Part shown: piece after piece, positions 2,881 to 61,516 of the stretch
Layout of the letters: each line of letters begins with the position of its first letter
Position numbering within the stretch: the first letter of the stretch is position 1
IMG/VR virus record: IMGVR_UViG_3300009431_000004
Reading direction: 5' to 3' (one strand)
Length of the DNA stretch: 64,000 nt
DNA from: a virus
The notes under the pieces: model-generated
Database searches by the model: none
What the model was told of the DNA's origin: nothing
Seen by the model: the letters and a program-made list of their open reading frames with translations, nothing else
Program-made: the position numbers and the translations under genes

Positions 2881-2908
2881 CAACTCGTGGGAGTCGCTTC
2901 TAAGCCCC
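2881..2908 (-). promoter_or_regulatory. class-I promoter-like motif
   Basis: GGGGCTTAG-N13-GAGTTG. Confidence 0.8.
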
Positions 2909-2929
2909 TCTATAGAAATAAAAAGAAAG

Positions 2930-2957
2930 GGGGCTTAGAGTCACGCCCCCGGAGTAG
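2930..2957 (+). promoter_or_regulatory. class-I promoter-like motif
   Basis: GGGGCTTAG-N13-GAGTAG, back-to-back with 2881..2908 across an A-rich spacer. Confidence 0.8.
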
Positions 2958-4309: not shown

Positions 4310-4335
4310 GCCCACACCACACAGCATTAGGGTAG

Positions 4336-4554
4336 AGTGGGAAGTGTCCTGTTCTTGAGGTGCCTCTTGTGCCAAACGCAGGGGGAAACACAGCGAGTCC
4401 TTACAGTCCTTCACTAGACCGTTTTGACCTTTCAAAGGGGTACATTGTGGGAAATGTTGCAGTGGTCAGCCATCGAGCAAACGGCCTCAAAAGGGATGCT
4501 TCACTTTTAGAAATGGAGGCCCTCCTGCTGTATATGGAGAAAAAACTACAATGA
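4336..4554 (+). pseudogene. C-terminal remnant of an HNH-type endonuclease
   Basis: KCPVL...SPSLDRFDLSKGYIVGNVAVVSHRANGLK; AT-richer; in-frame stop just upstream; same family as 21967..22542. Confidence 0.75.
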
Positions 4555-7090: not shown

Positions 7091-7118
7091 GGGGCTTAGA
7101 ACACCTCCTTCCGAGTAG
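7091..7118 (+). promoter_or_regulatory. class-I promoter-like motif
   Basis: GGGGCTTAG-N13-GAGTAG; its TAG is also an ORF stop. Confidence 0.8.
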
Positions 7119-13485: not shown

Positions 13486-13513
13486 CAACTCGCATCTTTC
13501 GGTTCTAAGCCCC
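13486..13513 (-). promoter_or_regulatory. class-I promoter-like motif
   Basis: GGGGCTTAG-N13-GAGTTG. Confidence 0.8.
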
Positions 13514-13554
13514 CTCCGTGCGAAAATATTTTCCGCCCTTTTATTAAGGTAAAG

Positions 13555-13582
13555 GGGGCTTAGGACCGCGACGAGCGAGTAG
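13555..13582 (+). promoter_or_regulatory. class-I promoter-like motif
   Basis: GGGGCTTAG-N13-GAGTAG, divergent pair with AT-rich spacer. Confidence 0.8.
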
Positions 13583-20940: not shown

Positions 20941-20968
20941 CTACTCGGAGAAGACGGCTCTAAGCCCC
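20941..20968 (-). promoter_or_regulatory. class-I promoter-like motif
   Basis: GGGGCTTAG-N13-GAGTAG. Confidence 0.8.
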
Positions 20969-23302: not shown

Positions 23303-23330
23303 CTACTCGGTGGAGGCGGCTCTAAGCCCC
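23303..23330 (-). promoter_or_regulatory. class-I promoter-like motif
   Basis: GGGGCTTAG-N13-GAGTAG. Confidence 0.8.
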
Positions 23331-25656: not shown

Positions 25657-25684
25657 CTACTCTTTCAGAGGGGGTCTAAGCCCC
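25657..25684 (-). promoter_or_regulatory. class-I promoter-like motif
   Basis: GGGGCTTAG-N13-GAGTAG. Confidence 0.8.
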
Positions 25685-43734: not shown

Positions 43735-44543
43735 CTCTTCCCTCCCTTCTTCGGATTCTCGGTCACGGTCTGGTCCAGCATGGATGTCGCTGACTCATCC
43801 TTGAACCCTTGGCTCATGGTCGGCGCGACTCCCGTAGTCCCGGCTGTCGGGAACGCAGGCTCGACCCCTTCAGGAAGGGTTGAGCCTTCCAGCTCGATTG
43901 CAGGCCACAGGCAGAGGGTGTTCTCGACGTGGGAATCCCACGAGATATGTTCGTGGTTGAGCCTCTTGAGAGGGTGGTCCACAACCCATGTCGGCTTGTC
44001 GAGATGGAGCCGGTGGGTGATGGCTTCGAGCAACACCTCCGGCATTGCCGCGTTGCGGGCCACCTTGACCCCCACAATGATGATTAGCAGCTCGGGAGGC
44101 TCAGTGAGGTCCGCGAGACTTCCAAATCGGTTAGAGGGGCGTCTACGGCGGCTCACGTCCACATCTGGGTCTACGACTTCGTTGGCCCCGGAGAGCCACG
44201 CATCCATGAGGTCGGTGTCCGAGACGACGGCGAAGTACCACCGAGGCCCCATGCGGATGGCCACATGGCGCAGATGCTCCTTCAGGGCCACGTCCGGGGA
44301 CGTGATACGCAGGCACTCCTTGTCACGTCCCCAGAGAGGTGATTCGGGGATGGGCCGGGCGTCCCCAAGACCCTTCCAACCGCGCTCGACGTTGGCCTTC
44401 ACGTCCCTGACGACGACGCAGGTGCAGATACGGGTCTGACCGCCCGTGATGCCGGTCTGCTCCTCCGCCGGGATGGGTATAACCCCCCTGCCGTGGCAGT
44501 GAGGGCAATCTACCTTCCCGTCACCTTGCGGATAGTCGCTCAT
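43731..44543 (-). CDS. Zn-finger protein, possible degenerate DnaC/IstB-like helicase loader
   Basis: CPHCHGRG...CTC; PELLII; PTWV; no intact Walker A; coupled to the helicase gene. Confidence 0.55.
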   Translation of the reverse strand: MSDYPQGDGKVDCPHCHGRGVIPIPAEEQTGITGGQTRICTCVVVRDVKANVERGWKGLGDARPIPESPLWGRDKECLRITSPDVALKEHLRHVAIRMGPRWYFAVVSDTDLMDAWLSGANEVVDPDVDVSRRRRPSNRFGSLADLTEPPELLIIIVGVKVARNAAMPEVLLEAITHRLHLDKPTWVVDHPLKRLNHEHISWDSHVENTLCLWPAIELEGSTLPEGVEPAFPTAGTTGVAPTMSQGFKDESATSMLDQTVTENPKKGGKR

Positions 44544-49047: not shown

Positions 49048-52000
49048 GTGAGTAACGCCTCCAAACGAGTCGCCCGACGCTATCTGGCCTCGAAGATGTC
49101 CGCGACCCCCGACCCCAAGCCGGTCGGCGCGGGCCGCCTCATCGACCTTGCCAATTTCGCTCTGGCCTTCAGAGCCTACGGCAACTGGCTGGTCGAAGCG
49201 GGCCAAGACGGGAGCAAGGACGCGCTCTACGGTGCCGGGTTCAAGTTGGGTCGCCGGTATATGGTCGAGCTGGTCAACGGCACGTCCCAGCACATCGCCC
49301 CACTGATGGACGACAGCAAGGCGGCAGCCGTCGCGCCCGCCATCCGAAAGTCACAGAGAGCAGGAAATCCGGTGGTCACGATGGGCCGCCACGCGGATAT
49401 GTTCCAGACGGTTCTCCCGTGGATGTTGACGAAGCAGGCCATCTTCCGGGGGATGTTCCAAGGGAAGGTGGCCAAGGCTGCCCGCATGGTCGCCAACGCG
49501 GCCCAAGAAGAGTCCTTCCCGGCGCTCCTGAACAAGTCCGCCAACATCATGCCGGTGTCCGGCCTGCGAATCCCCTCCCAGTGGATTACGAAGGCAGCCA
49601 AGGCCGCCGGGGCGGAGCTGACCAGCACCGAGCTGACGATGGTGGACGCGAAGCTGGCCAAGGCACTCGGAGAGGACCTCAAGTCCGCCGAGACGGACCT
49701 CGCCGTTGCCCAACCCAACACACCCGAAGCCGCCGCGCTGGAAGAAAGGCGGACCGAGATTCTGGCCCGTATCGAACAGATGGCGGAAGAATCCGACAGC
49801 CCGGATACCGTCCGAGCCGTCGCCGGGTCTGTCCAGCAGATGTCGGACCACGCCACCGAAACGGGCCGCCGTCTGGGTCACACCATTGACCAAGAGGCGG
49901 CGATGATAGCGCAGGGGAGGGCCATCATCGCTGCGGGCGCAGGCTCCGGCAAGACCCGCGTGCTGGCCTCGAAGGTCGCCTACCACATCAATGAGCTGGG
50001 GGTTGACCCCACGGCCATCCTCGCCACCACCTTCACCACGAAGGCCGCAGGCGAGCTGAAGAAGAGGGTGGCCGACTACGGGGCCGTCATCGAGGGTGTC
50101 GCGGACGACAACTTCGGGACCACCCACTCCATCGCTGGCAAGATGCTCAACCGCCGGGCAACCGCGTTCCGGCGTCCCAAGTACATCGGCAAGAAGGAGA
50201 TGTGGAAGCAGTCCCTCCTCATCCGGCTGGCCATGGAGCAGGTCCAGATGACCGGCGGCGGGGAGCATCTCGCACCCCAGCCCAAGGGTTTCTGGGAGGA
50301 CGCCTTCGTGCCGGACACCCCGCCGGGGCAGGATACCGACATGGCGGACTACCAAGCCGCCGTTGACGACGCCATCGGGTTCTATCGCTGGGCTTCCGAG
50401 AACTGGCAAAAGCCGTGGAGGAACCGGCCCGGCAACCAGAAAGCTGCCGACTGGGCTGGGCGTGTCGCCGCAGACCTCATGGCCATCCGCAGCACGCCGC
50501 CCAGCCAGCTCACTCCTCGGCAGAAAGACTGGCTCAACAAGAGTGTGTTCCCCAAGGTCAAGCGGGTCCAATACCGTGTCGCCGCCAAGAAGAAAGAGGA
50601 CGAGGCACCCCCGGAGCCGAAGCAGCAGAAGAAGAAGCTCGACGACTACACCTACTACAAGAGGCCCGCAGGGCAGTGGTTCAACCTCGGTCGCAAGCTC
50701 ACCCGAGAAATCGGGGAGGGTGCCGAGATGGGCATCCCGCTCGGGGAGTTCAAGAACGCCATCTCCATCCTCAAAGGCAAGGGCATCTCCCCGTCCGAAG
50801 CATGGACCGGACAGGACGGCCCCTACGGTGAAGCGTCTGACGCCGCAGCCGTCTACGCCGCCTACGAGTGGCTCAAAGGCAGCAACGGGGAGCCGGAGTT
50901 CCAGTCCACGGGCGACATGGATGACATCCTCATCGACACCGTGAAGGCACTGGTGGGAAGCCCGACCCTCCGTCGGCAGATGGAGGCCCAGTACAAAGTT
51001 CTGCTCATTGATGAAGCCCAAGACCTCAACCGTGTGCAGCATCTCCTGTTCGGCCTGATGGCGGGCTACCTCGACGCCGAGACGCTCGAACCCCACGCCG
51101 ACAAGCACATGAGCGCCGACACCTACTGCCTGATTGGCGACGATAAACAGGCGATTTACGAGTTTCGCGGCGCGGACCCCGGTGAATTTATTGACAAATC
51201 CAACCTCACCGAAGGCGGCGACAACTTCTCGACCAAGATTCTGGACCTGAACTTCCGGTCCGGCGAGGCCATCGTTCAGGGGGCCAACCGGCTCATCGCC
51301 CACAACTGCATCGAGGAGGCCACCCCCATTAACACCCCCCAAGGGGACCGAAAAGCCTCTGACCTCCAAATCGGGGATTCAATCCTGACCTACCGGAATG
51401 GTGAAGTTGTCACGGGACAGGTATCTGAGATACATGAGTCCCTATGGACTGAAGGGTTTTGTATACGCACCCACAAAGGTCATGAGATTGTCATGTCTCC
51501 GAACCATCGCCTGTGGGCATCCGAACCTCTAATCCCGGACAACATGGTTTCGGTATACCTGATGTACCGGGAGGATTTCGGGTATCGCATTGGGACCACT
51601 TCTTGCGGGGGGCGTGTTTCTCAAGGTTCTAATTATCCTCAGTCTTTAGGGGCTAGGGCTGCGATGGAACATGGAGAAAGAATGTGGATTATCGGGGTAT
51701 ACCCCACAGTAGATGAAGCACTCCATCAAGAAAGCATCCTATCCCTTCGGTACAGCATCCCTATGACGGTATTCCGCAACAGGGGGAGGACGCCTTCGGA
51801 TGACCGAATTGTTCGCATTTTTCAAGAGTTTGGGAGTAATGGATTACGCCTATTGGAAGAACGGCACCTGTCCCCTGAGTACCCCCATTGGGCTGCCCGT
51901 TCCCAACGCGGGCATGGCCGCAACCGGGAGGTGATTTCCTTCATCGCTCACGGCGCACGGGGGAGTCAGGTTTACCTCCGAGGAGTAGATGGGGATATTC

Positions 52001-53514
52001 ATACCCGGAAACAGTTTGCGGTCTACGAGGAAGCCCAACAATTTGTTTGGGGCCTAAGTCGGGGAACTGGACATACCATCATCGAGAAAATGCAAATCGA
52101 GGACGCCGAGTTGCACCTGATGACTGCTTCAGCCTTAATGGAAGGGATGATGATTCCGGTGTTAGATGAGGGTATGGTGACACTCCAACGTATCCAGTCT
52201 ATCCAAAGAACAAAAGGCACCTTCTTGGACTTAGGCATCGAAGGAACTTGCAATTTCTTTGGAGGGGGAATCCTGAGTCATAATTCCAAACAGGTGCCGA
52301 TGGTCTGCAAGGCCAACGTGGACCGCAACGGCACAGGGCAGCTCATCAGCCGTCCAGCGGAAGACTCCGCCGAGGCCGGTGTGCTGGTGGCCGAAGAAAT
52401 CGAGTCCATGATGGAGACGGCAGAGGACGATGCCTCGAAGTACATCGACTTCGGTGTCGCTGTCCGCTCGAACGCCGAGGCATACCACTACGGGTTGGAG
52501 ATGCTCAAGCGGGGCATCCCCTTCAAGTCCAACGCCCGGTTCTTCAGCGACCCGAACACCAAGGCGCTCATCGGCTGGCTCACCATCGCGGAGAACGGTA
52601 TCGACGGCCCTCCGGCCATGATGGAGCAGGCGGTCAAGGATGCCATGAAGGCTCCCTACAGCCGCCTCGGAAAGGCTCTCCTGAACACCTTGATGGAGGA
52701 CGCGGGCGGCACTCCGTGGACCAAGTACCTCGTGGACAACGCCTCCACCATCTACCGGCGCGACCCGTGGAAGGGATTTCTCGAACACTTCGCAGAGAAC
52801 ATCAAGGCTGCCTCGAAGCTCACCGGCACACCCCCGGACATTCTGGGGAAAATCATGCTGTTCAACGGGGTGGATGGAACCTCGATGCAGACCGGAATGA
52901 TTCGCAGTGTGGCCGAGAACGAGGACATCATGGCCGAGCTGGCCGCCGCCTCCGAGGGGGGCGTTGTCACACAGGAGCAGCTCGACGAAGCGGCCCTCGC
53001 GCCGGTCGAACCTCTCATCGGCCTCATGTCCGGCAAGGAGGAACTGGGGCCTGCGATGACCTTCGTCCGCAAGCTCCGGGCGGTCAACGACAAGGTGACT
53101 TCCAAGGACACCGAGGAGGAGCTGGACCGCGACGCCGTGACCATCGGGACCATGCACTCGTGGAAGGGCCTCGAATGCCCCAACGTCTACGCCCCCATGG
53201 TCGGCGGCAAGTTCCCCCGGACCGGGCCGGATGGTACGGCGCTGGAAAGCCCGGACCTGTGGTCCGAGCGTCGTCTTGCCTACGTGGCCATCACCCGCGC
53301 CGAGCAACGCTGCTGTGTCCTCGACATCCCCAACCCCAAGACCGGCCACCGGAGCCAGTTCCTCGCAGAAGCCTGTGTGCAACCGGAGGGGATGCCTGCC
53401 GACGGTGAGGGGAAGGTTCCGAAGACAGCCGCGTGGCAGCCTGCTCGGGATGAGATAGAGGAGCTGATGGACCTCGGCTACGCCATCGAACAGAAGCTCA
53501 CAGGAGGACAGTGA
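49048..53514 (+). CDS. UvrD/PcrA SF1 helicase with long N-terminal extension and an intein
   Basis: AGAGSGKT, TFTTKAA, IDEAQD, GDDKQAIYEFRGA, NFRS, TMHSWKGLE, ERRLAYVAITRA. Confidence 0.93.
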   Translation: MSNASKRVARRYLASKMSATPDPKPVGAGRLIDLANFALAFRAYGNWLVEAGQDGSKDALYGAGFKLGRRYMVELVNGTSQHIAPLMDDSKAAAVAPAIRKSQRAGNPVVTMGRHADMFQTVLPWMLTKQAIFRGMFQGKVAKAARMVANAAQEESFPALLNKSANIMPVSGLRIPSQWITKAAKAAGAELTSTELTMVDAKLAKALGEDLKSAETDLAVAQPNTPEAAALEERRTEILARIEQMAEESDSPDTVRAVAGSVQQMSDHATETGRRLGHTIDQEAAMIAQGRAIIAAGAGSGKTRVLASKVAYHINELGVDPTAILATTFTTKAAGELKKRVADYGAVIEGVADDNFGTTHSIAGKMLNRRATAFRRPKYIGKKEMWKQSLLIRLAMEQVQMTGGGEHLAPQPKGFWEDAFVPDTPPGQDTDMADYQAAVDDAIGFYRWASENWQKPWRNRPGNQKAADWAGRVAADLMAIRSTPPSQLTPRQKDWLNKSVFPKVKRVQYRVAAKKKEDEAPPEPKQQKKKLDDYTYYKRPAGQWFNLGRKLTREIGEGAEMGIPLGEFKNAISILKGKGISPSEAWTGQDGPYGEASDAAAVYAAYEWLKGSNGEPEFQSTGDMDDILIDTVKALVGSPTLRRQMEAQYKVLLIDEAQDLNRVQHLLFGLMAGYLDAETLEPHADKHMSADTYCLIGDDKQAIYEFRGADPGEFIDKSNLTEGGDNFSTKILDLNFRSGEAIVQGANRLIAHNCIEEATPINTPQGDRKASDLQIGDSILTYRNGEVVTGQVSEIHESLWTEGFCIRTHKGHEIVMSPNHRLWASEPLIPDNMVSVYLMYREDFGYRIGTTSCGGRVSQGSNYPQSLGARAAMEHGERMWIIGVYPTVDEALHQESILSLRYSIPMTVFRNRGRTPSDDRIVRIFQEFGSNGLRLLEERHLSPEYPHWAARSQRGHGRNREVISFIAHGARGSQVYLRGVDGDIHTRKQFAVYEEAQQFVWGLSRGTGHTIIEKMQIEDAELHLMTASALMEGMMIPVLDEGMVTLQRIQSIQRTKGTFLDLGIEGTCNFFGGGILSHNSKQVPMVCKANVDRNGTGQLISRPAEDSAEAGVLVAEEIESMMETAEDDASKYIDFGVAVRSNAEAYHYGLEMLKRGIPFKSNARFFSDPNTKALIGWLTIAENGIDGPPAMMEQAVKDAMKAPYSRLGKALLNTLMEDAGGTPWTKYLVDNASTIYRRDPWKGFLEHFAENIKAASKLTGTPPDILGKIMLFNGVDGTSMQTGMIRSVAENEDIMAELAAASEGGVVTQEQLDEAALAPVEPLIGLMSGKEELGPAMTFVRKLRAVNDKVTSKDTEEELDRDAVTIGTMHSWKGLECPNVYAPMVGGKFPRTGPDGTALESPDLWSERRLAYVAITRAEQRCCVLDIPNPKTGHRSQFLAEACVQPEGMPADGEGKVPKTAAWQPARDEIEELMDLGYAIEQKLTGGQ
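51307..52284 (+). mobile_element. intein in UvrD with a non-LAGLIDADG central domain
   Basis: HN|CIEEATPI...SPNHRLW...GGILSHN|S; AT-richer; 326 codons. Confidence 0.9.
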
Positions 53515-53515
53515 C

Positions 53516-55264
53516 ATGGCGAAACCCTTGAATCCCAAAGCCATAGCCGCTCTGATTGCCAAGATGGACAAGTTCGAGAGGAAGAACCCAAATGTCGAAT
53601 TCCCCCGAGCTGCGGGACTTCTTCAGTTGTTGAAAGACCTCGAAAAGGCGAAGAGTTCTCGGGCAGTCAAGAAAGTCACCGGGGACATCGACAACTACAT
53701 CAAGCGGGGCATCGGGTGGGGGGAACCCAATACCCCTTGGTACGCGGCGACTAGGGCCTTGTACGAATATGCAATGGCCCGGAGGAGAGCCACCTCCGAG
53801 GCTTACGACACGACCAATGTGGACGCGGCCATTGCCTATTTCAAGAAGTACCTGACGGGTTCCACTTTGAAAGAAGTGGTCAAGATATTGGAGGACATCA
53901 GGGGTCTTATGCTCGACCCATCGTCTTTGGGCCTCTACGAGGAAACAGAATTCAGCACCATGCGGGAGGAGATGTCTTGGCCTCTGCAACGCATCAGGAA
54001 GATACTGAAAAGAGAAGTGTACGGTTGGCTGATTGAAAGGGGTTCCAAGGGCCATGCCATCTTTGAAGGGGTCAAGAAACTCAAGAAAATCAAGAAGAAA
54101 TCCCACATGGCCAACCCCGTTGAATGGATGACCTACCGGACCTACCTACGGGACCACCCGCAGGCCGTCAGGGAAGCCCGTCGCCTGCTCACCGAGAGGT
54201 ACGGGGAAGCCTTCGCAGACGCACTGATGGAGTTCATCCGCACCCACAGAGAGGTCCCCTCCGAGGACACCTTCGCAGACCCGCTGTTTCAGGTCCGGCC
54301 CGAGATATTCTCGCAGGCATGGGCCGAACGGCGCGACCTCAAAGGACGGCCCATCGGGGACCGGGTGGACGTGACGACCGACGCGGTGAGCGACCTCTGG
54401 GCGCAGCTCGACACGACCCTCAACCGGGACGGGTGGGACGCCGAACTGGACCGGATGGACGAGACGGACATGCTGTGGAAGTTCGCCGCCCCCGACTCAT
54501 TCGTCGAAATCACCCGCGAGGACTTGGAGGCATGGCTGAACACGCTGCCCCTGAAGGGGAAGTGGAAGCTCAAGACGGGCCGCGTCAGCATCTACCTCCT
54601 GCCCATCAGCAAGTCGGTCGGTATCTCCTTGTCCTCGACCATCGGCTCGAAGGACACCGGCATGGGCCGTGGCAAAGCCAGCATGAATCTGGCCCTCGTC
54701 TCCCTCATCACCGGCAAGGTTCTGAACAAGAAGGCGATGGGCCAGTCCTACTTCAAGCGGACGACGAACTGGAAGAAGACGTGGAAGATCGGGTTCGACC
54801 GGATGGTAGCCGCCTACAAGAAGTCGCAGGGGTTCTACGACGCACTGGCCGAAATTGACGACCGGGACAAGTACAGGGAGGACATCCTTGACAGAATCGT
54901 GGCCTTCGAGGGCTGGGAGTCTGACAACACTCTGTCCGACTTCTATTCACGGGTGCAACGGGGCGGCGTCCTGACCATGAAGCAGTTGGCCCTGCTGGAA
55001 AGCACCCTCAAGCACGACGCCAAGTCCTCCCCGGCCAAGCCTGTTATCGACCAGAAGATGGTTGAGCGACTTCGGTTGCTGTGGACCGTGGCCAAGAAGA
55101 AGGGCGACCCGTGGTTGATGGACTTCGCACAGAGTATCGGGGAGCGTCTCAAGAAAGGGTTGGAACTCAGCTCGAAGCAGGAAGCCGCCCTCGAACGAAA
55201 CCTACGCCAGCACCGGGTCGGGGCCGACGAGCTTCGGGCCATCATTCATGCTGCTGCCGAATGA
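53516..55264 (+). CDS. mosaic hypothetical protein
   Basis: AGGAGG RBS; AT-richer 5' third; repeated L-[TS]-x-KQ motifs near the C-terminus. Confidence 0.75.
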   Translation: MAKPLNPKAIAALIAKMDKFERKNPNVEFPRAAGLLQLLKDLEKAKSSRAVKKVTGDIDNYIKRGIGWGEPNTPWYAATRALYEYAMARRRATSEAYDTTNVDAAIAYFKKYLTGSTLKEVVKILEDIRGLMLDPSSLGLYEETEFSTMREEMSWPLQRIRKILKREVYGWLIERGSKGHAIFEGVKKLKKIKKKSHMANPVEWMTYRTYLRDHPQAVREARRLLTERYGEAFADALMEFIRTHREVPSEDTFADPLFQVRPEIFSQAWAERRDLKGRPIGDRVDVTTDAVSDLWAQLDTTLNRDGWDAELDRMDETDMLWKFAAPDSFVEITREDLEAWLNTLPLKGKWKLKTGRVSIYLLPISKSVGISLSSTIGSKDTGMGRGKASMNLALVSLITGKVLNKKAMGQSYFKRTTNWKKTWKIGFDRMVAAYKKSQGFYDALAEIDDRDKYREDILDRIVAFEGWESDNTLSDFYSRVQRGGVLTMKQLALLESTLKHDAKSSPAKPVIDQKMVERLRLLWTVAKKKGDPWLMDFAQSIGERLKKGLELSSKQEAALERNLRQHRVGADELRAIIHAAAE

Positions 55265-55896
55265 CCCCCTGACGGGCGTTTCACGGCCTTCCGGGTCTTC
55301 GGCTTCCCGTTGCTCTTGCCGTTCCCTTTGGATGCCTTCTTGGGGGTGTCTCCGCTCATCGTGGCCGCAGCCTTGAGTTCTGCCACCCTCGCTTTCCGGG
55401 CTGCGGCCATCTGGGCCTTCCGCAGCTTGTCCTGCTTCGCCTTGTAGGCGATGGCCTTCTTCCTGCGACGTTCCTCGTCGGCGGCCTTGAGCGCGGCCAG
55501 TTTCTCCTGCTGTGCCTTCTTCTTCGCGCTGACCTCCGCAGCCTTCTGGTTCTCTTCCGCCAACCGCTTCTCCATCGCCTTGTTGTCGATGGGGCGCAGG
55601 ACTTGAGTGATGCGGTCGAAGGTGACGACCACGGAGGGGTTCATCACATGGTTGCCGTACTTGCTGACGACCGTCTTAATCTTCCCGGCTGGCACAGCGG
55701 CGTTCTGGACATAGGCCGAAGCCTGTGCGCCGTTGCCGTCCCAATAGGAAACCACGTCCCCGACCTGCACATCGTTGATGTCGCCTTGGGCCGGGACTGC
55801 GTTCTTGGCTCTGGGGTCGCGGAAACCTTGCCGGTAGACAACGAGGTACTTGCCCTCCTGCTGCATTTCCGGCTTGCTGGCTGCTTTTTTCTTCAT
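55246..55896 (-). CDS. Lys/Ala-rich basic protein
   Basis: Start MKKKAAS; histone-like tail. Confidence 0.7.
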   Translation of the reverse strand: MKKKAASKPEMQQEGKYLVVYRQGFRDPRAKNAVPAQGDINDVQVGDVVSYWDGNGAQASAYVQNAAVPAGKIKTVVSKYGNHVMNPSVVVTFDRITQVLRPIDNKAMEKRLAEENQKAAEVSAKKKAQQEKLAALKAADEERRRKKAIAYKAKQDKLRKAQMAAARKARVAELKAAATMSGDTPKKASKGNGKSNGKPKTRKAVKRPSGGHSAAA

Positions 55897-55933
55897 GTCA
55901 CTACTACCCCAATCGTATCGAAGCTCTACCCAC

Positions 55934-56566
55934 CTACACGCCCTGCGGAAGCAGGTCGATGATTTGCACGCCATGTTCACGGGAGAATTCGATGCCGCCC
56001 ACGGAGTCGAAGTCGAACAGCTTGTCGCCGTTGGCGTCCTGCGCCTCGTACCCCTGCACGGTCGTCCCGTGCCGGTTCATCTTGAGCGCGTGGACCAGCG
56101 ACCACGGCTCGCCCAACGCGACCTGTGCCGCCGTGGGCGTGAAAGCCACCGGCTGACCCTTCACGGTTGCCGGTGCCGGGGGCGGAGCCGCCACGACCGC
56201 TGCCGGAGCAGGAGCCGGGCCGGTTCCCGTGGCTACCGCCGAGGCGACGGCCCCGCCGAGCTTCGCAATGCTCTTGGGGGACATGCGCCGGTAGGGGGCA
56301 TCCACGTAGCCGTAGCCCTTGTTCAGCTTCTCTTCCACCTTGTCACGGAGCTTGGACCACGTAATCAACGTGGTCTGGGCGCTCGAACCAACGGCTCCCC
56401 AACCGACCTCGACCATCTCGTCATGGGCGCGTCCGGTGGCGAACCAAAACTTCTCCGACCATCCCCCGGCGTTCGCAGAGTTCGGGCCTCGGAATTCCAG
56501 CCTGAAGGACCACGGGCGTTTCCGCGTCGCCAGCCCTTCGGCATCGGTGATTGTCAAACTGGCCAT
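55934..56566 (-). CDS. WGR-domain protein
   Basis: SEKFW...VGWGAVG...EKLNKGY. Confidence 0.7.
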   Translation of the reverse strand: MASLTITDAEGLATRKRPWSFRLEFRGPNSANAGGWSEKFWFATGRAHDEMVEVGWGAVGSSAQTTLITWSKLRDKVEEKLNKGYGYVDAPYRRMSPKSIAKLGGAVASAVATGTGPAPAPAAVVAAPPPAPATVKGQPVAFTPTAAQVALGEPWSLVHALKMNRHGTTVQGYEAQDANGDKLFDFDSVGGIEFSREHGVQIIDLLPQGV

Positions 56567-56595
56567 CGTCAAAAACCTCTCTCGCCTCAAGCACT

Positions 56596-56623
56596 CAACT
56601 CGCCAGTTTCGGCTCTAAGCCCC
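56596..56623 (-). promoter_or_regulatory. class-I promoter-like motif
   Basis: GGGGCTTAG-N13-GAGTTG. Confidence 0.8.
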
Positions 56624-56654
56624 CCGATTGTAGTTTATTTTTCTTTTATGAAAG

Positions 56655-56682
56655 GGGGCTTAGAGTCGCGTGACGCGAGTGG
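56655..56682 (+). promoter_or_regulatory. class-I promoter-like motif
   Basis: GGGGCTTAG-N13-GAGTGG, divergent pair with T-rich spacer. Confidence 0.8.
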
Positions 56683-56746
56683 GGTACGTAGGAAGATGAG
56701 GTGATGACGATGTTGCCGTTTCCTCGGGGTCGTCTTCGGGATTCTC

Positions 56747-57091
56747 ATGTCCGGCTTCACGGAGTTCCCGTGGAGGTCGGTCGTCGTGGGCGGAGCTGCC
56801 GGTCTTTTCTTGGCCGCCATGGACATCATCCAACCCTACGTCCGCGAACGGACATGGGACATCACGAGGTTCTCCACCCTGCTCCTGAGCTGGGCGTTGA
56901 TAATGGCCATCGAGTTCGTCCCCGCCGTTCGGAGCGCCGTCCCGTGGATGGACGAAACGCCTGCCTTCCACATCAAACACCCCGTTTGGGGGACGCCCCT
57001 GATGCTCGTCGGCATGGCTCTGGTATTGGCCATCATCATCTACTTGCTGGTGGGGGCCATCAGGAGGAAGGACTATGACGACTCACGTTGA
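56747..57091 (+). CDS. membrane protein
   Basis: Three TM segments; true start may be near 56704 across an indel. Confidence 0.65.
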   Translation: MSGFTEFPWRSVVVGGAAGLFLAAMDIIQPYVRERTWDITRFSTLLLSWALIMAIEFVPAVRSAVPWMDETPAFHIKHPVWGTPLMLVGMALVLAIIIYLLVGAIRRKDYDDSR

Positions 57092-57203
57092 CCACGCTGC
57101 CATCGCGCAGGTCACGGCGACCAACTGCTGTGTCTGCCGGGCGCACCTGACCGACGCCGAGTCCGTGGAGCATGGTATCGGAGGGAGGGTTCGATGCCTG
57201 TAA
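57075..57203 (+). pseudogene. orphaned original 5' end of the gene at 59118..60083
   Basis: MTTHVDHAAIAQVTATNCCVCRAHLTDAESVEHGIG, then 6 unrelated codons and TAA; AGGAGG RBS; GC3-rich. Confidence 0.85.
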
Positions 57204-57415
57204 TCTTATTGCCCGTGGTCATTGTGGCTACATCGGTTTGGGTATGGGCGGATGCCCGCGCCCTTGGTGTTCCCAAATTGTACGACCGAGGACAAGTTCA
57301 GCTTGCCCCTTTCGAGTGGTTTGTTCTTTGCCTACTGTTCTGGCCCATCACATTCCCGGTCTATCTTGCAAGAAGACGTAGCTTCAGGGAATTGCGGAAA
57401 TCTGAAGAAAGTTGA
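57194..57415 (+). CDS. small two-TM membrane protein
   Basis: WVWADA...W...LLFWPITFPVYL; GGAGGGAGG RBS. Confidence 0.7.
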   Translation: MPVILLPVVIVATSVWVWADARALGVPKLYDRGQVQLAPFEWFVLCLLFWPITFPVYLARRRSFRELRKSEES

Positions 57416-57446
57416 CCACGGCATCGGACCCTGATACCATCCAACC

Positions 57447-57578
57447 ATGAGTATCGACCTCGACAACATTCGGTGTCGGGACTGCGGACGACGAGTTAAG
57501 AATCCGGGTTACAGAATCACGTATAAGGATTTGGCAAACCGGCTCTGCCCTGAATGTAAAGCAACAAATAACGACTAA
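57447..57578 (+). CDS. 43-aa zinc-ribbon peptide (below the ORF-track cutoff)
   Basis: MSIDLDNIRCRDCGRR...LCPECKATNND; no clear RBS. Confidence 0.45.
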   Translation: MSIDLDNIRCRDCGRRVKNPGYRITYKDLANRLCPECKATNND

Positions 57579-57613
57579 AGTTAACCCGCTGGCCAACGCC
57601 CGAAGTGAGGAGC

Positions 57614-58423
57614 ATGAAACAACTACTACTTTTTGATAGCGCACCAAAAGATCGCAACTGCTCGCCAGTCGGCGTTGAACGTCTTGTTGGGAGTCGTAGC
57701 ACCCAAGCCAGAACCCACCTAGATTTATTTAGTGGTATTGGTGGCTTTGCTCTTGCTGCAAGATGGGCAGGGCTTAAAACTGTGGCGTTTTGTGAGATAG
57801 AAGATTTTTCCAGGAGGGTATTAAGCAAGAACTTTCCGGGCATACCGATACACAAAGACATTAGAGAATTAGAAGGGAGCAAATATGAAGGGATTGGCAT
57901 CATCACAGGGGGATTCCCATGTCAAAACATTAGCAGAGCCGGGACCGGAGCGGGCTTGTCTGGGCATAGATCCAGTCTTTGGTCGGAAATGTTCAGAGTT
58001 ATTGGAGAAGTTCGGCCAAAATGGGTCATTATTGAAAATGCCAGCTCCCTGCGAGGTAATGGGCTTGCGTCCATCCTGCAAGATTTATGGACGCTCGGGT
58101 TCGATGCGGAATGGCATATTATATCAGCAGCCTGCGTTGGTGCCTCACATCAACGGGAAAGAACGTGGATTATTGCAAACTCCGACGGTGGAGGATGCGA
58201 AGCGGCAAGGATCACAGAGAGCTTGGGTAAAGTATTTGCAGGAGAAACATACAAGCAGTTGCCGCCTGCGGAATCAGGCCGCTTTCTTGGACGAGAAGGA
58301 TGGGTACCTGAACCCAGAATGGATCGGATTACTGATGATGTACCCGGCAGGATGGGCGAAATTAGCGGCTACGGAAATGCGATAGTCCCACAGGTTGCTT
58401 ACGAAATACTGAGATGTATTTAG
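57614..58423 (+). CDS. DNA (cytosine-5) methyltransferase, large polypeptide
   Basis: DLFSGIGG, GGFPCQ, IIENA, HQRERTW, GNAIVPQVA. Confidence 0.92.
   Translation: MKQLLLFDSAPKDRNCSPVGVERLVGSRSTQARTHLDLFSGIGGFALAARWAGLKTVAFCEIEDFSRRVLSKNFPGIPIHKDIRELEGSKYEGIGIITGGFPCQNISRAGTGAGLSGHRSSLWSEMFRVIGEVRPKWVIIENASSLRGNGLASILQDLWTLGFDAEWHIISAACVGASHQRERTWIIANSDGGGCEAARITESLGKVFAGETYKQLPPAESGRFLGREGWVPEPRMDRITDDVPGRMGEISGYGNAIVPQVAYEILRCI
57885..58385 (+). CDS. nested alternative-frame second polypeptide of the C5 MTase
   Basis: SGSMRNG, LLQTPT, LNPEWIGLLMMYPAGW (motif IX-like); lies fully inside the MTase gene; start uncertain. Confidence 0.7.
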   Translation: MKGLASSQGDSHVKTLAEPGPERACLGIDPVFGRKCSELLEKFGQNGSLLKMPAPCEVMGLRPSCKIYGRSGSMRNGILYQQPALVPHINGKERGLLQTPTVEDAKRQGSQRAWVKYLQEKHTSSCRLRNQAAFLDEKDGYLNPEWIGLLMMYPAGWAKLAATEMR

Positions 58424-58453
58424 ACACCCAACAGGCGCGTGGGCCGCTTCCCC

Positions 58454-59098
58454 ATGGAAGCAAATGCCAAAATCGTCGTCTCCCCGGCAATGGACCAAGT
58501 GATAATGGGGTCCATCTTGGGAGACGGGCATCTTGAAAGACCTCCTCCCGGAAGCCTGAATTGGGGATTGGGTATTAAGCACGGCCTGAAACAAGAACCT
58601 TATGCCCTGCACAAAGCCAACCTACTCGGCCCCCTAGTTTCAAAAGTAGACCACCCAACGGAACGGGTACGAGTCAGAACAGTGAGGCACCCGCACCTCA
58701 CAGAATGGGCTTCTCTGGCAGTCCCGGCCAAGAAGAAAATCGTCCCGCCGGAACTGATTTCCCAAGTCGGACCTTTGGCTCTCGCTATCTGGTACATGGA
58801 TGATGGGTCATTTCTGACTAAATTGAACAAAGATGGCACCGTCTACAAGCTCATCCGAATCGCGTCCTTCTCATTCACCCCGAAAGAAAACAAAGCCTTG
58901 ATAACCATGCTACAAGAGCGTTTTGAGATTGAGGCACATATCTGGAAACAGCCCAACAAGCGAAAACCGAAATCCCCTTACAAAGGGATTTGGATGTCAA
59001 AAGGTGAAGCCGAGAAGTTCCTGTCCATCACACACCCCTATCTTGAACCAACCTGCATGGCCCACAAATGGGGGCTTAGAGAGCTTTCTACAGAGTAG
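58454..59098 (+). CDS. LAGLIDADG homing endonuclease (two-motif, LAGLIDADG_2 type)
   Basis: IMGSILGDGHL and LAIWYMDDG. Confidence 0.9.
   Translation: MEANAKIVVSPAMDQVIMGSILGDGHLERPPPGSLNWGLGIKHGLKQEPYALHKANLLGPLVSKVDHPTERVRVRTVRHPHLTEWASLAVPAKKKIVPPELISQVGPLALAIWYMDDGSFLTKLNKDGTVYKLIRIASFSFTPKENKALITMLQERFEIEAHIWKQPNKRKPKSPYKGIWMSKGEAEKFLSITHPYLEPTCMAHKWGLRELSTE
59071..59098 (+). promoter_or_regulatory. class-I promoter-like motif embedded in the endonuclease 3' end
   Basis: GGGGCTTAG-N13-GAGTAG; the TAG is the LAGLIDADG stop codon. Confidence 0.8.
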
Positions 59099-59117
59099 AA
59101 ACTGTAGGAGGTGTCAC

Positions 59118-60083
59118 ATGAAACCCTCAACAAGAGCGCAACTTGACCGTATCGCCCTGATGACCGCCACAAATTGCTGTGTTTGTCACGCCCGATTGAC
59201 TGATGCAGAGTCCTTAGAGCATGGCATAGGTCCTGTATGCTCCAAGAAATACTACAACCCCGAGCATCAGCCGACCGACGACATGGTGCTGGACGCCCTC
59301 GGCCTCGTGGCCGTGTCAGGGCTGCCGGACAACATCGTGGATGGCTTCCTTCAGCTCGTGAACAACGACAAGGTGAATGCTCGGAAGGGCTGCAACCTGC
59401 TCATCTATTGGGCCTCATGCAACTACGACAACCGGGAGGAGGTCTTCCGCTGCTCCGCCATCATCCGCACCCTCGGGTACACGGAGCTGGCGGACAAGCT
59501 CGAAATCGACCGCACTGCTGCCCGGATGGTGGACACCGGCACCGAGTGGGTGGTCTACGTCGGCACCAAGTACAAGTTCGAGAAGGACATGGGCTTCGTG
59601 CAGGGCGCGACCAAGGACGAGAACTCCAAGGTCGGCTCGAAGGTCAAGTGGACCATCCCCTACGCGGAGAAGGACCACTTCTTGGCCGTCCTCGGCCTCC
59701 ACTACGGACGGGAACTGGCCTGTGGGGACAACCCCACCGGGGCCAAGGAACGGGTCTGGACCATCGCCAAGACCTACTGGCGCAACGTGCTGGCCTTCCG
59801 CCACCGGACCGCACAGCCGACATCCATCCCTGCCCCGTCCACCGGAACGACCGGGGCAGGCAGCGGGTTCGTGCCGGGGGAAGTCTGTGTGAACCTCAAC
59901 GGACAGGGACTCCTCGAAGTCATCACCCCCTACGATTCGGGGTTCGTGGCTGCCCTCAAGAACGCGGTCCCCTACCGCGACCGTGCATGGGACACCGTGA
60001 ACAAGCACTGGCGGGTGAAGGCGAAACACTTTGTGACCGTCGCTGGCCTCATCGGTCAGTTCTACGGACAGTATTTGGCTTAA
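59118..60083 (+). CDS. DUF6011-like Zn-finger protein with C-terminal HARP-like domain
   Basis: CCVC...LTDAESLEHGIGPVC; TPYDSGFVAALK...RAWD...W; AGGAGG RBS. Confidence 0.75.
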   Translation: MKPSTRAQLDRIALMTATNCCVCHARLTDAESLEHGIGPVCSKKYYNPEHQPTDDMVLDALGLVAVSGLPDNIVDGFLQLVNNDKVNARKGCNLLIYWASCNYDNREEVFRCSAIIRTLGYTELADKLEIDRTAARMVDTGTEWVVYVGTKYKFEKDMGFVQGATKDENSKVGSKVKWTIPYAEKDHFLAVLGLHYGRELACGDNPTGAKERVWTIAKTYWRNVLAFRHRTAQPTSIPAPSTGTTGAGSGFVPGEVCVNLNGQGLLEVITPYDSGFVAALKNAVPYRDRAWDTVNKHWRVKAKHFVTVAGLIGQFYGQYLA

Positions 60084-60166
60084 CAGGGAGGTGCGATGAA
60101 AGCAGGAATCGGGAGGTCCAGCCGGACGCCATCGTCTCGGCCTCTACCGGCTGGGCCTCCTAGCCC

Positions 60167-60721
60167 TCACTGAGGGGCCGGGACCGGCGGCTTCTTCGCC
60201 GGAATCTTCTTGTCTACGTGCTTGAACGCCATCTCCCAGTACGCGATGCCCTGACCACCGGCAAGGAAGGCGAACACCGCTGCGTTCTCGATGCTGTACC
60301 CCGCTGCCAGATAGCTGGCGAACGTGGCGAGGCCCCCGACCACGAAGGAAATCCACGGGACGGACTTCTTGAGCTGGCCCAACCACCCTCTTCGACGGAT
60401 GACCCAGATGCAGACCATGATGATAAGCCCGGCGAGGACTGTCCAACTCCCTCCTCCGGCGAGGACCTGCCCCATCATCTGGGCTGCCTCCTCGGGTGTC
60501 TCGGGCGGCTTCACCGCAGCGGGGACGGGTGGAGGTTCTGGGGCTGCCGGAGCTTCGACCTTTTCGGGGGCAGCGGCCACGACCGGGGCTTCGTCAGCGA
60601 CAACGGCTGCTGGTTCCATGACCTCGACAGCCGTGACCCCCGCGTCGGGGTCTGTCTCCTGTGCGATTGCCGGTACGGCCAGCATCATCATGATGGCCAC
60701 GGTAAGGATGAGACGTTTCAT
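60167..60721 (-). CDS. signal-peptide membrane protein (holin-like C-terminal TMs)
   Basis: Signal peptide, Pro/Ala linker, three TM segments. Confidence 0.65.
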   Translation of the reverse strand: MKRLILTVAIMMMLAVPAIAQETDPDAGVTAVEVMEPAAVVADEAPVVAAAPEKVEAPAAPEPPPVPAAVKPPETPEEAAQMMGQVLAGGGSWTVLAGLIIMVCIWVIRRRGWLGQLKKSVPWISFVVGGLATFASYLAAGYSIENAAVFAFLAGGQGIAYWEMAFKHVDKKIPAKKPPVPAPQ

Positions 60722-60732
60722 GGAGTAACCTC

Positions 60733-61116
60733 CTACTTGGACTTGATACGGTCAAGCAAGTCCTTCTTCGTCCCCGAAACAGGGACGTGAAGGCGCTTGG
60801 CCAGCTTCACCAGTTCCGTCTTCTTGAGCGCGGACAGTTCTTGCGCCTTGGAAGGAGCGCGACGCGGGGTCGCGGACGCGGCACGCTTGGGTGCCTCAAT
60901 GGGGTGGGGTTCGAGCTTGATAGCCCCGGCCTTGGGCGGTTTCTTGTCCGTGTAGACCCGAGCGTAAGGCACCGAGTTCAGCTCCTCTTGGATGGCCTTG
61001 ACCTGCGCCGGAGAGAGGCCCGGCAGGCGGAGCTGCTGCTTGAGCTGACGCTGGTGCTTCTTCTCGTGCAGAACCCGAACCTTGGGGTCCGCTTGTTGTC
61101 GTGACACGAAAGGCAT
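60733..61116 (-). CDS. basic protein with C-terminal SAP/Rho-N-like motif
   Basis: LKKTELVKLAKRLHVPVSGTKKDLLDRI. Confidence 0.7.
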   Translation of the reverse strand: MPFVSRQQADPKVRVLHEKKHQRQLKQQLRLPGLSPAQVKAIQEELNSVPYARVYTDKKPPKAGAIKLEPHPIEAPKRAASATPRRAPSKAQELSALKKTELVKLAKRLHVPVSGTKKDLLDRIKSK

Positions 61117-61117
61117 C

Positions 61118-61516
61118 TCACTCCTCCTTGTGCACTGTCCGGGCGAAGTGGGTCAAGTCCCCGACTTCGAGGGGCTTCCCGCAGTTGGGACATAGTTCGC
61201 CTTCCTGCAAGTCCCCGATTTCCTCGGGCGTCACCATGCAGCCCTTCATGGTGCAGACGACATCGAAGTGGGCCGAGATGGGGCCGTAGTCTTTATCGTC
61301 GATGCCCCCGATGCCGTTCACGACGCCCAGAAGGCCCACAGAGTAGCTCTCCGGGTTGTTGGGGTCTGTCAACACCTGAACGGTGGGATGGGCTGCCATG
61401 GTCGCATTGCACGGCACTCGCGTCTCCACGAGTGCGCGGGTTGCAACCGGGTCCGCCTCCAACATGGAGTTCAGGACTTCGATAAAACGGTCAATGGAAC
61501 AAGGGTCGTGAATCAT
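61118..61516 (-). CDS. phage hypothetical protein with Zn ribbon
   Basis: HPTVQV...GLLGVVNG; CPNCG. Confidence 0.7.
   Translation of the reverse strand: MIHDPCSIDRFIEVLNSMLEADPVATRALVETRVPCNATMAAHPTVQVLTDPNNPESYSVGLLGVVNGIGGIDDKDYGPISAHFDVVCTMKGCMVTPEEIGDLQEGELCPNCGKPLEVGDLTHFARTVHKEE

Follow-up and report, generated by a model that had tools for sequence, protein, structure and literature searches.

A DUF6011 gene is split in the phage genome represented by the 64,000-nucleotide stretch of DNA analysed here (the window), and a second, foreign 5′ end reads into its gene body. The observation is confirmed: a GC3-rich 5′ fragment breaks off, an AT-richer insert follows, and a second start leads into the gene, points on which sequence and GC3 agree and which the preliminary description had stated. 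We consider it probable that the arrangement arose by conventional intronless homing with co-conversion of the 5′ end, and that one-sided repair without homology, in this phage only, stranded the old 5′ end. The earlier interpretation, a self-repairing endonuclease cassette of an unrecognised kind, is supported in part by comparison with related loci. The features of the region are as follows.

56747–57091, + strand: native small upstream gene, 114 aa, membrane-like (ORF list; GC3 0.83)
57075–57182, + strand: stranded native 5′ fragment of the DUF6011 gene (DUF6011 match; GC3 0.81)
57183, + strand: left junction, GGA/GGGAGGG (sequence; GC drop; left ends of six cassettes)
57194–57415, + strand: 73-aa membrane ORF with strong ribosome-binding site GGGAGGG (GC3 0.50, donor composition)
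57411–57440, + strand: conserved left end of the endonuclease cassette (sigma-70-like promoter and half-site)
57447–57578, + strand: Zn-ribbon ORF, 43 aa (alignment; weak Zn-ribbon Pfam matches)
57614–58423, + strand: C5 cytosine DNA methyltransferase gene (PF00145, phrog_363; SD GAGGAG, ATG 57614)
58439–59098, + strand: LAGLIDADG core of the homing endonuclease, GTG 58439 or ATG 58454 (PF03161)
59072–59098, + strand: phage-family promoter motif GGGCTTAGAG-N13-AGTAG (11 copies in the window; relatives)
59118–59237, + strand: donor 5′ end of the DUF6011 gene (GC3 0.47 versus 0.86 downstream; N-terminus unlike relatives)
59238–60083, + strand: native body of the DUF6011 gene (GC3 0.86; homologues; clusters with L096/L100)

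The first reading frame (57075–57203) encodes MTTHVDHAAIAQVTATNCCVCRAHLTDAESVEHGIG followed by GRVRCL and a stop codon; the gene fragment within it ends with GAG CAT GGT ATC GGA, after GIG, and the frame continues to the stop at 57203. The second (59118–60083), whose translation starts MKPSTRAQLDRIALMTATNCCVCHARLTDAESLEHGIGPVCS, is the whole gene of 321 aa, for which 43 full-length homologues of ~300 aa were found. Pfam DUF6011 (PF19474) matches the full gene above the curated cut-off of 26.6 bits (E = 8.5e-9, 35.2 bits) and the stranded fragment below it (E = 4e-5, 23.4 bits), the lower score being due to truncation. Judged by composition and by its 76% identity to the N-terminus of the nearest gene-body relative (P0005), compared with 60% to the window's second copy, the stranded fragment is the native one. 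Its start is overlapped by the small upstream gene, which has a family promoter motif of its own at 56656–56682; in relatives, too, a small plus-strand gene abuts the DUF6011 gene, and synteny around the locus is conserved. Flanking synteny is preserved on both sides of the inserted region.

The two 5′ copies, separated by ~2 kb of lower-GC DNA, are identical at 57 of 81 nt of the duplicated stretch (70%), with identical runs of at most 8 bases. At the protein level the second differs from the first at 5 of 27 residues, has an unrelated N-terminus and includes the variant site CAT GGC ATA GGT CCT GTA. GC3, which the preliminary description had proposed to plot, is 0.81–0.86 in the native genes and the fragment; the inserted ORFs have 0.43–0.58 and the new 5′ end 0.47. 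The value switches at 59232–59238 and is back to 0.8–1.0 from about 59238. In a motif-pattern search of 48 related loci, including the eight other endonuclease-bearing lineages, a second motif copy was found in the window alone. Relatives carrying both 5′ copies without the endonuclease, which would have spoken against the earlier interpretation, were thus not seen. The endonuclease gene is present elsewhere without a duplication, so duplication of the 5′ end is not its regular mode of insertion; the stranded fragment is unique to the window phage.

The endonuclease cassette and its promoter motifs

Native DNA stops and lower-GC donor DNA starts at the left junction (57183). The native break falls no more than 2 nt from the end of the conserved cassette half-site (GGACC), the native fragment ending in GGA. 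The 73-aa membrane ORF that follows is probably the donor's flanking gene: no match was found in Pfam or PHROG, the Atlas matches were to unnamed viral and bacterial clusters only, and the ORF was absent from all related loci.

Next comes GAC CAC GGC ATC GGA CCC, a half-site of the sensitive-type target that reads DHGIGP. It sits within a sigma-70-like promoter, TTGACC-17-TACCAT, in which TG precedes the second hexamer. This is the sole such site within 56500–60300, and an ATG lies 6 nt past the predicted promoter, which is leaderless geometry. TTGACn-N16/17-TAnAnn with the half-site as spacer recurs in L085, L086, L119, L125 and L127. We therefore read the inner HGIGP stretch not as a scar but as a conserved cassette end overlapping a promoter-like sequence, which would serve as the promoter of the endonuclease gene and possibly as an operator.

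The Zn-ribbon ORF aligns with the N-terminal domain of fused Zn-ribbon/LAGLIDADG ORFs (L085, L086, L119, P0044, P0047, P0049). On this alignment it is the homing endonuclease's own severed N-terminal domain, cut off by the C5 methyltransferase gene that lies nested within the endonuclease gene's linker; the insertion point was taken from alignment A2. Contrary to the preliminary description, the Zn ribbon is thus not cargo. The methyltransferase was assigned by a PF00145 match together with the motifs FxGxG, PCQ, ENV, QxRxR and a C-terminal GN(A/S). PF00145 covers its N-terminal half (E = 1.4e-37, 130 bits, cut-off 22), phrog_363 matches over the full length (at 32–271), the motifs FSGIGG, FPCQ, IIENA, QRERTW and GNAIVP are all present, and the protein is colinear with phage methyltransferases of about 240 aa.

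LAGLIDADG homing endonucleases cut site-specifically within a long target and leave 4-nt 3′ overhangs. Residues 20–174 of the core in the window match PF03161 (LAGLIDADG_2; E = 1.7e-25, 90.4 bits, cut-off 25), and the core also matches PHROG 11023, 'homing endonuclease with LAGLIDADG motif'. Both LAGLIDADG motifs are present with their acidic residues (ILGDG and YMDDG, the single-chain form), and alignment A2 shows D34 and D126/D127 to be almost invariant. With the endonuclease genes that adjoin DUF6011 genes in L085 and L086, the core shares 52–58% identity. It is split from its N-terminal domain by the methyltransferase gene and has no clear ribosome-binding site; the enzyme of the window may thus be inactive, in which case an intact one acting in trans may have been required for the invasion.

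At its 3′ end the LAGLIDADG ORF overlaps a perfect copy (59072–59098) of the motif GGGCTTAG-N15-GTWG, which lies 20 nt upstream of the target gene's ATG. This had been noted before and is borne out, the window holding 11 copies against 0.21 expected by chance. The further claim that the element re-promotes the gene needs correction. Many endonuclease-free relatives, as well as L085 and L086, have this motif ahead of the DUF6011 gene, and the promoter is therefore no invention of the element; from its distribution, it is the donor's native target-gene promoter.

Distribution, altered sites and the recombination boundary

The suggestion of a homing element at this site is strengthened by the linkage of the LAGLIDADG gene to the DUF6011 site in many lineages. 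L085, L086-88, L119, L120/121, L125/126, L127 and L128 each have a homologue of the endonuclease (35–58% identity) directly 5′ of a DUF6011-motif gene, which with the window makes eight lineages with the endonuclease in that place; in a ninth, L130, the homologue adjoins the DUF6011-motif gene but points away from it. The linked targets include three other DUF6011 gene families. On the target-protein tree, 5 of 27 alleles bear the endonuclease, requiring 5 gains or losses, and 3 of these 5 have close sisters without it. The endonuclease is thereby scattered among uninterrupted alleles with a single motif copy (at least 22 distinct ones). The empty alleles that the preliminary description had called for are accordingly the rule, but a search for a near-identical empty allele or donor of the window phage found none, the best relative being 62% identical in protein. 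Being sporadic at one conserved locus among related genomes, the endonuclease gene appears mobile. It is free-standing, outside any intron or intein, with its own start and stop codons.

Nearly all endonuclease-free alleles read GAG CAC GGC ATC GGN CC. When the endonuclease lies directly 5′, the Ile codon is changed to Leu, Val or Met in 7 of 8 alleles; the window has ATA. The association of site change with endonuclease linkage gave a Fisher p of 5e-5, or 0.002 within the 300-aa family, uncorrected for phylogeny. Beside these statistics, which ignore shared ancestry, three independent sister pairs agree: EHGIGP is replaced by E[LI]GLGP in the endonuclease-linked allele in 3 of 3. Of the earlier idea of immunisation by recoding, comparison supports that linked alleles have an altered site; the 'recoding' itself corresponds to a divergent donor allele, as the residue changes and unrelated N-terminus described above indicate. 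Since the window's variant, GGC ATA GGT CC, also occurs in the endonuclease-free L003/L099, and ATA in L110 too, immunity of the window's own site is doubtful.

Between L119 and its sister L115, identity is 63–73% 5′ of the site and 93–100% from the TGC just 3′ of it; two other sister pairs show a similar step, and the GC3 switch of the window falls at the same place. The proposal that the 5′ end beside the endonuclease is foreign up to the GIGP codons is thus backed by the window's GC3 and by an independent sister pair. Such a pattern fits co-conversion of everything from the cut to the endonuclease gene, and the breakpoints point to the likely position of the cut.

Proposed homing route and alternatives

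Free-standing endonucleases cleave at a distance from the gene that encodes them, and the DNA in between is co-converted; in T4, experiments have demonstrated one-sided homing with illegitimate repair of the double-strand break (both reviewed in PMC2988022). By this route, a free-standing homing endonuclease gene would have invaded the phage from a related phage of the same family with lower GC. Its enzyme would combine a Zn ribbon at the N-terminus with a LAGLIDADG core and is usually encoded just upstream of a gene that starts with the DUF6011 motif. Endonuclease-free alleles would be cut within the most conserved motif codons, ...CAC GGC ATC GGA/CCN GTN TGC; the putative sensitive-type target is ...GAGCACGGCATCGGACCNGTNTGC..., with the cut predicted at GGA/CC. 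A donor carrying the endonuclease gene would then serve as template for repair: the right end would invade the homologous gene body beside the cut, and copying would proceed leftward through the donor's variant site, the 5′ coding end and the native promoter into the endonuclease gene. Resolution of the left side would rely on homology in most lineages and leave no duplication. In the window phage, whose upstream genes would not have been homologous to the donor's, copying would have continued through the cassette promoter/half-site and the donor's membrane ORF, and the left end would have been sealed at the break without homology, leaving the native 108-nt 5′ fragment stranded. The methyltransferase gene would already have been nested between Zn ribbon and core in the donor cassette.

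A considerably less likely reading, though the strongest competitor, is that of a dedicated end-replacing cassette, the phage counterpart of fungal mORFs, which regularly inserts with one-sided homology. It would always bring its own promoter and a replacement 5′ end and hop between unrelated DUF6011-motif genes, the stranded fragment of the window being a fresh state that later decays. Six cassettes conserve the half-site (VDxGIGPS) at their left end although identity among their endonucleases is only 35–58%, which suggests an ancestral insertion inside the gene; this conservation can, however, be explained by use as promoter or operator of the endonuclease gene instead of as a scar. The cassette precedes DUF6011 genes of at least four unrelated families, which share too little DNA for two-sided homologous repair, and fungal mORFs behave in this manner at 3′ ends (PMC3630166). 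In L085 a possible decayed fragment, MDADWTATADELRALLTHGIGP, lies between the upstream gene and the endonuclease gene, yet a recognisable second motif copy is present in only 1 of 48 loci. Also against this reading, the promoter ahead of the new 5′ end is the gene family's own, and between L086 and L110 the left side resembles an exchange in the shared promoter and 5′ UTR that carried the family-typical upstream gene along.

Ordinary mosaic recombination between related phages, with one crossover in the conserved DUF6011 motif DNA, the other illegitimate, and the endonuclease gene an uncleaving passenger, is improbable. Phage genomes are generally mosaic, conserved motif DNA is a natural crossover point, and the split endonuclease may be inactive. 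Such recombination nevertheless leaves unexplained why a LAGLIDADG clade adjoins a DUF6011 gene in nine lineages, why the linked alleles of all 3 sister pairs have altered core codons, why no more than 2 nt separate the end of the native fragment from that of the conserved half-site, and why the similarity step between L119 and L115 falls at the same codons. Still more remote is an assembly chimera of two related phages in the sample. The contig is metagenomic and the protein was found on one contig only, but it would take two joins, one out of and one back into a single genome, with the frame kept. At the left join (GGA/GGGAGGG) there is no shared sequence for an assembler to collapse, identical runs between the copies do not exceed 8 bases, and synteny is intact on both flanks. 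Least credible of all is a self-splicing group I/II intron or an intein restoring the gene at the RNA or protein level: although insertion into a conserved motif is typical of both, an Rfam search of 56900–59400 gave no family match even at E ≤ 1, a Pfam search of the inserted ORFs found no intein splicing domain, the copies are separated by several distinct ORFs with stops, and the second one comes with a promoter motif, SD and ATG of its own and a complete N-terminus, in line with the preliminary description.

Comparison with known systems

Conventional homing with one-sided repair fits known intronless homing and illegitimate repair (PMC2988022) and mirrors the mORFs of fungal mitochondria (PMC3630166); it therefore calls for no new class, which the preliminary description had suspected. 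T-even free-standing endonucleases such as SegF, SegG and MobE undergo 'intronless homing' with co-conversion (PMC2988022). As there, the gene in the window is intergenic, the cut would fall in a conserved neighbour in genomes that lack the gene, the repair proposed for the window would copy the endonuclease gene and the DNA up to the cut, the linked allele has a different site, and distribution is sporadic. One-sided events with non-homologous junctions, known experimentally in T4 (PMC2988022), are proposed for the window. Unlike the T-even enzymes, which are GIY-YIG or HNH, the window enzyme is LAGLIDADG with an N-terminal Zn ribbon; its target encodes a protein motif common to several unrelated gene families, the stretch apparently co-converted is the promoter and 5′ end of the gene, the stranded native fragment would preserve a natural one-sided footprint, and the endonuclease gene is split by a methyltransferase gene.

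In I-TevI autorepression, the operator, which resembles the homing site, lies across the promoter of the endonuclease itself (PMC2988022). Similarly, a copy of the target half-site, a putative operator, lies in the sigma-70-like promoter spacer directly before the endonuclease ORF in six lineages, though the enzyme family differs, as does the origin of the site, which would be a target-gene remnant. 'Fractured genes' are described as having a free-standing endonuclease gene between gene halves that carry split inteins (PMC2677866). They resemble the window in that an endonuclease gene interrupts a conserved gene at a conserved site in environmental phage-like DNA; there, both halves are needed and are joined by protein trans-splicing, whereas the window has a redundant upstream piece and a gene that is made whole in the DNA itself.

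Fungal mORFs, described from atp6 of Allomyces macrogynus and from atp6, atp9, cox2 and nad3 of Glomus sp., consist of an inserted, mostly LAGLIDADG ORF with a foreign gene end, the native end remaining as a remnant (PMC3630166). In both systems an endonuclease ORF travels with a foreign gene end that replaces the native one, the remnant is unexpressed, and the duplicates are diverged in DNA (63.5% identity there, 70% here) while similar in protein. The window differs in that no in-frame fusion joins its endonuclease ORF to the host gene, the genome concerned is that of a phage and not of an organelle, and the duplication, found in only 1 of 9 lineages, is not the rule. It is also reversed: mORFs replace the 3′ end, and replacement of a 5′ end means that a promoter and start codon must be supplied. 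With its stranded start and its foreign replacement start and promoter, the window presents a phage mirror image of the fungal mitochondrial mORFs (PMC3630166).

Two 5' ends of one gene

The gene carrying the DUF6011 motif begins twice in the window. An ORF at 57075–57203 codes for MTTHVDHAAIAQVTATNCCVCRAHLTDAESVEHGIG, after which the codons are unrelated (GRVRCL*), and a second ORF at 59118–60083 (321 aa) opens with MKPSTRAQLDRIALMTATNCCVCHARLTDAESLEHGIGPVCS and continues to the full-length protein; Pfam DUF6011 was matched by both. The 81 bases common to the two 5' ends, or heads, are 70% identical, with a longest identical run of at most 8. GC3 lies at 0.81–0.86 in the upstream gene, the stranded fragment and the gene body. 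The four intervening ORFs have 0.43–0.58 and the new 5' end has 0.47; values of 0.8–1.0 are regained from ~59238. The intervening ORFs are as follows.

ORFs between the two heads
73-aa membrane ORF
43-aa Zn ribbon
C5 methyltransferase
LAGLIDADG_2 protein

The stranded fragment overlaps the upstream gene, precisely where the native start is expected. Its identity to the N-terminus of P0005, the allele closest to the window's gene body, is 76%, and to the window's own second copy just 60%, which argues that the fragment is native and the second head foreign. Every particular noted in the preliminary description (two gene starts, GC3 contrast, intervening ORFs and a perfect promoter-motif copy) was borne out. 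Identity of the interruption as an intron or intein was rejected. No match to INPHARED phages was obtained with 55000–61500 as a DNA query, no near-identical empty allele or donor of this phage was found, and a search for the donor lineage with the N-terminal 42 residues alone gave nothing significant.

The window belongs to a 170,835-bp phage contig and codes for a family A DNA polymerase, a DnaB-like helicase and two further helicases.

Helicase genes with features of interest
44540–47506 (−), SNF2 helicase with an intein carrying a LAGLIDADG_3 domain
49048–53514 (+), long UvrD-like helicase, 1488 aa, N-terminal helicase domain spread over residues 282–716

The stretched UvrD-like domain suggests an insertion within it, and selfish elements abound in the genome. 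The window also encodes, at 8532–10187 on the minus strand, a complete sensor histidine kinase (GAF, PAS, HisKA, HATPase_c). Forty-three full-length homologues of the target, of ~300 aa, were found (top identity 62%), and the largest phage contig carrying a relative of the gene measures 536 kb. When IMG/VR was queried with the single target protein, no relative came back; alignment-based scans did find relatives. Synteny is kept among these: a small plus-strand gene abuts the DUF6011 gene, and beyond it lie conserved opposite-strand genes for a small protein, a SAP-domain protein and a giant protein of ~2100 aa. The gene family is carried by three viral contigs from IMG/VR and JGI (L089, L090 and L106; 435, 536 and 528 kb), which places the window's phage in a group that includes very large phages.

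The endonuclease lineage and its nested methyltransferase

On two other phage contigs, L085 and L086, the closest homologues of the LAGLIDADG protein (58% and 52% identity) are each encoded directly upstream of a DUF6011 gene. Motif scans of related sequences gave ~30 distinct target alleles, and like endonuclease genes lie directly 5' of the target also at loci L119 and L120/121. Similarly, homologues of 41–43% identity are found directly 5' of DUF6011 genes from other families (L125, L127 and L128), and a 35% homologue adjoins a fourth such gene, oriented away from it. The sole homologue located elsewhere is the most distant one (29%).

The Zn ribbon and the LAGLIDADG core form a single ORF in these relatives. 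The window has the methyltransferase gene precisely within the linker between them (left edge ...CKATNND*, right edge *TPNRRVGRFPME), at the position where L086 has CKTTINRRVGCLPMATN. The Zn ribbon, previously counted as cargo, is therefore the endonuclease's own domain, severed by the nested methyltransferase, and the window's split enzyme may be inactive. As all inserted parts share the donor composition, the methyltransferase was probably nested in the cassette already before the invasion. The remaining ORF, that of the 73-aa membrane protein, belongs to no Pfam or PHROG family, matched only unnamed clusters in the Atlas and has no copy at any related locus.

Reading the methyltransferase as a doubly frameshifted pseudogene, with the typical motifs 'TPT..D' and 'LNPEW...GW' in the +1 frame, was rejected because frame 0 aligns colinearly, from end to end, with phage methyltransferases and phrog_363. 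No close relative was found; the best matches among cluster representatives had 53–60% identity, and their context was uninformative. The +1 frame of the gene (57614–58423) is open for 166 codons, and its segment at 58170–58385 encodes LLQTPTVEDAKRQGS...LNPEWIGLLMMYPAGW. In a tblastn search this peptide hit phage MW202483 within its methyltransferase gene (59% across 34 aa, E 6e-7), likewise in the +1 frame of the annotated CDS; the same stretch's +1 frame also has WPTPKASDGEGG. Frame 0 over the same DNA is only ~32% identical between the two (hand count). Over this segment, conservation thus seems higher in the +1 frame than in the annotated one; programmed frameshifting or a nested ORF could account for this. 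The methyltransferase insertion lies between the copies of an imperfect 9-bp direct repeat, ACAAATAAC (57566–57574) and ACACCCAAC (58424–58432), which read T-N-N and T-P-N. The repeat may reflect duplication of the target, microhomology or chance.

The two ends of the cassette

The LAGLIDADG ORF ends in a perfect copy of the motif GGGCTTAG-N15-GTWG. Across the window this promoter-like motif, given also as GGGCTTAGA-N12-GAGTWG, is present in 11 copies where 0.21 would be expected; most stand ahead of genes in pairs set back to back, often divergently.

Locations of the motif in the window
2881–2957
7092–7118
13486–13582
20941–20967
23303–23329
25657–25683
56596–56682
59072–59098

Its core, GGCTTAG, also precedes genes of distant, low-GC relatives such as L119, and the motif is likely the promoter of this phage family. 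GGCTTAG...GAGTAG stands ahead of the DUF6011 gene in many relatives without an endonuclease gene (L003, L094, L096, L102–105, L110 and L116), and in L085 and L086 at the end of the endonuclease gene. The perfect copy is there as first described, but it is not the element's own promoter: what the cassette (the endonuclease gene with its ends) therefore brings in with the 5' end is the ordinary promoter of the donor's target gene. Through a 2-nt difference from L085, the window's endonuclease ORF extends 8 codons into the motif. A 113-aa ORF with an L110-like promoter and 5' UTR was observed on the plus strand of L086 (4084–4424), where the collection's gene call is a minus-strand ORF (4098–4541); its C-terminus resembles the small genes that precede the DUF6011 gene in L001 and L091.

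At the left, six cassettes share an end of the form TTGACn, 16–17 nt, TAnAnn. The spacer, ACGGYATCGGACC, is a sensitive-type left half of the target and reads (V)DxGIGP(S). The endonuclease ATG follows 6–8 nt beyond this element in four of the six, and the window's copy (57412–57440), with TG ahead of the second hexamer, is the sole sigma-70-like site in the scanned 3.8 kb. Since the left end has been conserved while the proteins diverged to 35–58% identity, we read it as a predicted functional promoter, presumably derived from an ancient insertion at the cut. Possibly it is also an operator, for which I-TevI gives a precedent (PMC2988022). The idea that the inner HGIGP is a neutral 'third scar' of serial insertions was rejected, given its conservation in six lineages whose endonucleases are 35–58% identical. 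The native fragment ends at GGA and the cassette half-sites at GGACC, so the old and the recent event broke the target no more than 2 nt apart.

Mobility, mechanism and comparison with known systems

When 27 target proteins are placed on a maximum-likelihood tree, five gains or losses are required to explain the five alleles linked to an endonuclease gene. Close sisters without the gene exist for three of them (linked/unlinked: L119/L115, L085/L107 and L086/L110). The site in unlinked alleles is nearly always GAG CAC GGC ATC GGN CC (EHGIGP), and the linked allele is E[LI]GLGP in all three sister pairs. Other linked alleles have GLGP (L120, L127), GVGP (L125) or GMGP (L128). The statistics for this association are uncorrected for phylogeny. 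The window's linked allele retains GIGP with ATA as the Ile codon, and this variant site occurs in unlinked alleles too. The metagenome contig Ga0265297_10089675 (L113; motif at 535), without an endonuclease gene, has the IGLGP form within SVEIGLGPICS, as in the L086 linked allele; it looks like a lineage in which the endonuclease gene was lost after invasion and the variant site kept.

DNA identity between L119 and L115 is 63–73% 5' of the site and 93–100% from the TGC just 3' of it. The two other sister pairs have a similar step over a lower background, and the window's GC3 switch falls at the same boundary. These steps argue that, in each of four independent lineages, transfer of the endonuclease gene brought with it the target gene's 5' end up to and including the site.

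The simplest account of these patterns would be intronless homing by a free-standing endonuclease, in which the enzyme would cut the neighbouring conserved gene of genomes lacking the endonuclease gene and the DNA from the cut to the endonuclease gene would be co-converted (PMC2988022). On the left side, L086 and L110 show apparent resolution inside the shared promoter and 5' UTR, with the family-typical upstream gene carried along. In the window, the recipient genome lacks a counterpart of the donor's upstream 73-aa ORF, and identity between the heads is just 70%; closure of the left end at the break therefore seems not to have relied on homology. Such closure would be one-sided illegitimate repair, as known from T4 experiments (PMC2988022). 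The native head is intact and unameliorated, which argues for a recent event.

The feature is real, and known mechanisms explain most of it. The new twists are an endonuclease clade predicted to target a motif-coding sequence, replacement of the 5' end and promoter, a preserved footprint of probable one-sided repair, the predicted half-site promoter and a methyltransferase-split endonuclease gene. In the paper library searched, no phage example turned up in which a stranded gene end adjoins a homing endonuclease gene, and DUF6011 was not mentioned.

A wider reading, which we consider rather unlikely as it stands, is that the Zn-ribbon/LAGLIDADG clade is specialised on DNA for the EHGIGPxC core of DUF6011, not on one gene. 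Among unrelated phage genes and among phage families it would then travel as a self-sufficient cassette for which homology on one side may suffice, a 5'-end counterpart of fungal mORFs. The cassette would comprise the half-site-containing promoter, the endonuclease gene, the target gene's promoter and the replacement 5' end; it might regulate itself through the half-site and could pick up passengers such as the methyltransferase.

On the intronless-homing account, the window holds a natural, datable homing footprint from an uncultured large phage, with old head, presumed cut position, donor tract and junctions legible in one sequence. It points to a free-standing lineage of LAGLIDADG enzymes, not described before, that has a Zn-ribbon domain and a putative target of ~20 bp in the DUF6011 motif, and to a route of spread among different genes by aiming at a short motif-coding sequence near the 5' end. 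Annotation and phylogeny of phage genes can be misled by such events, which leave chimeric N-termini and stray pieces of genes behind.

The T-even seg and mob genes are functionally alike as free-standing endonuclease genes, but the window's enzyme differs in being a LAGLIDADG protein with a Zn ribbon. In fungal mitochondrial mORFs, a foreign C-terminus and an endonuclease ORF replace the native 3' end, which is left as a remnant, and the duplicates have 63.5% DNA identity (PMC3630166). The window is their structural mirror image, with the 5' end replaced instead of the 3' end, and would extend the end-replacement logic of mORFs to phages and to 5' ends.
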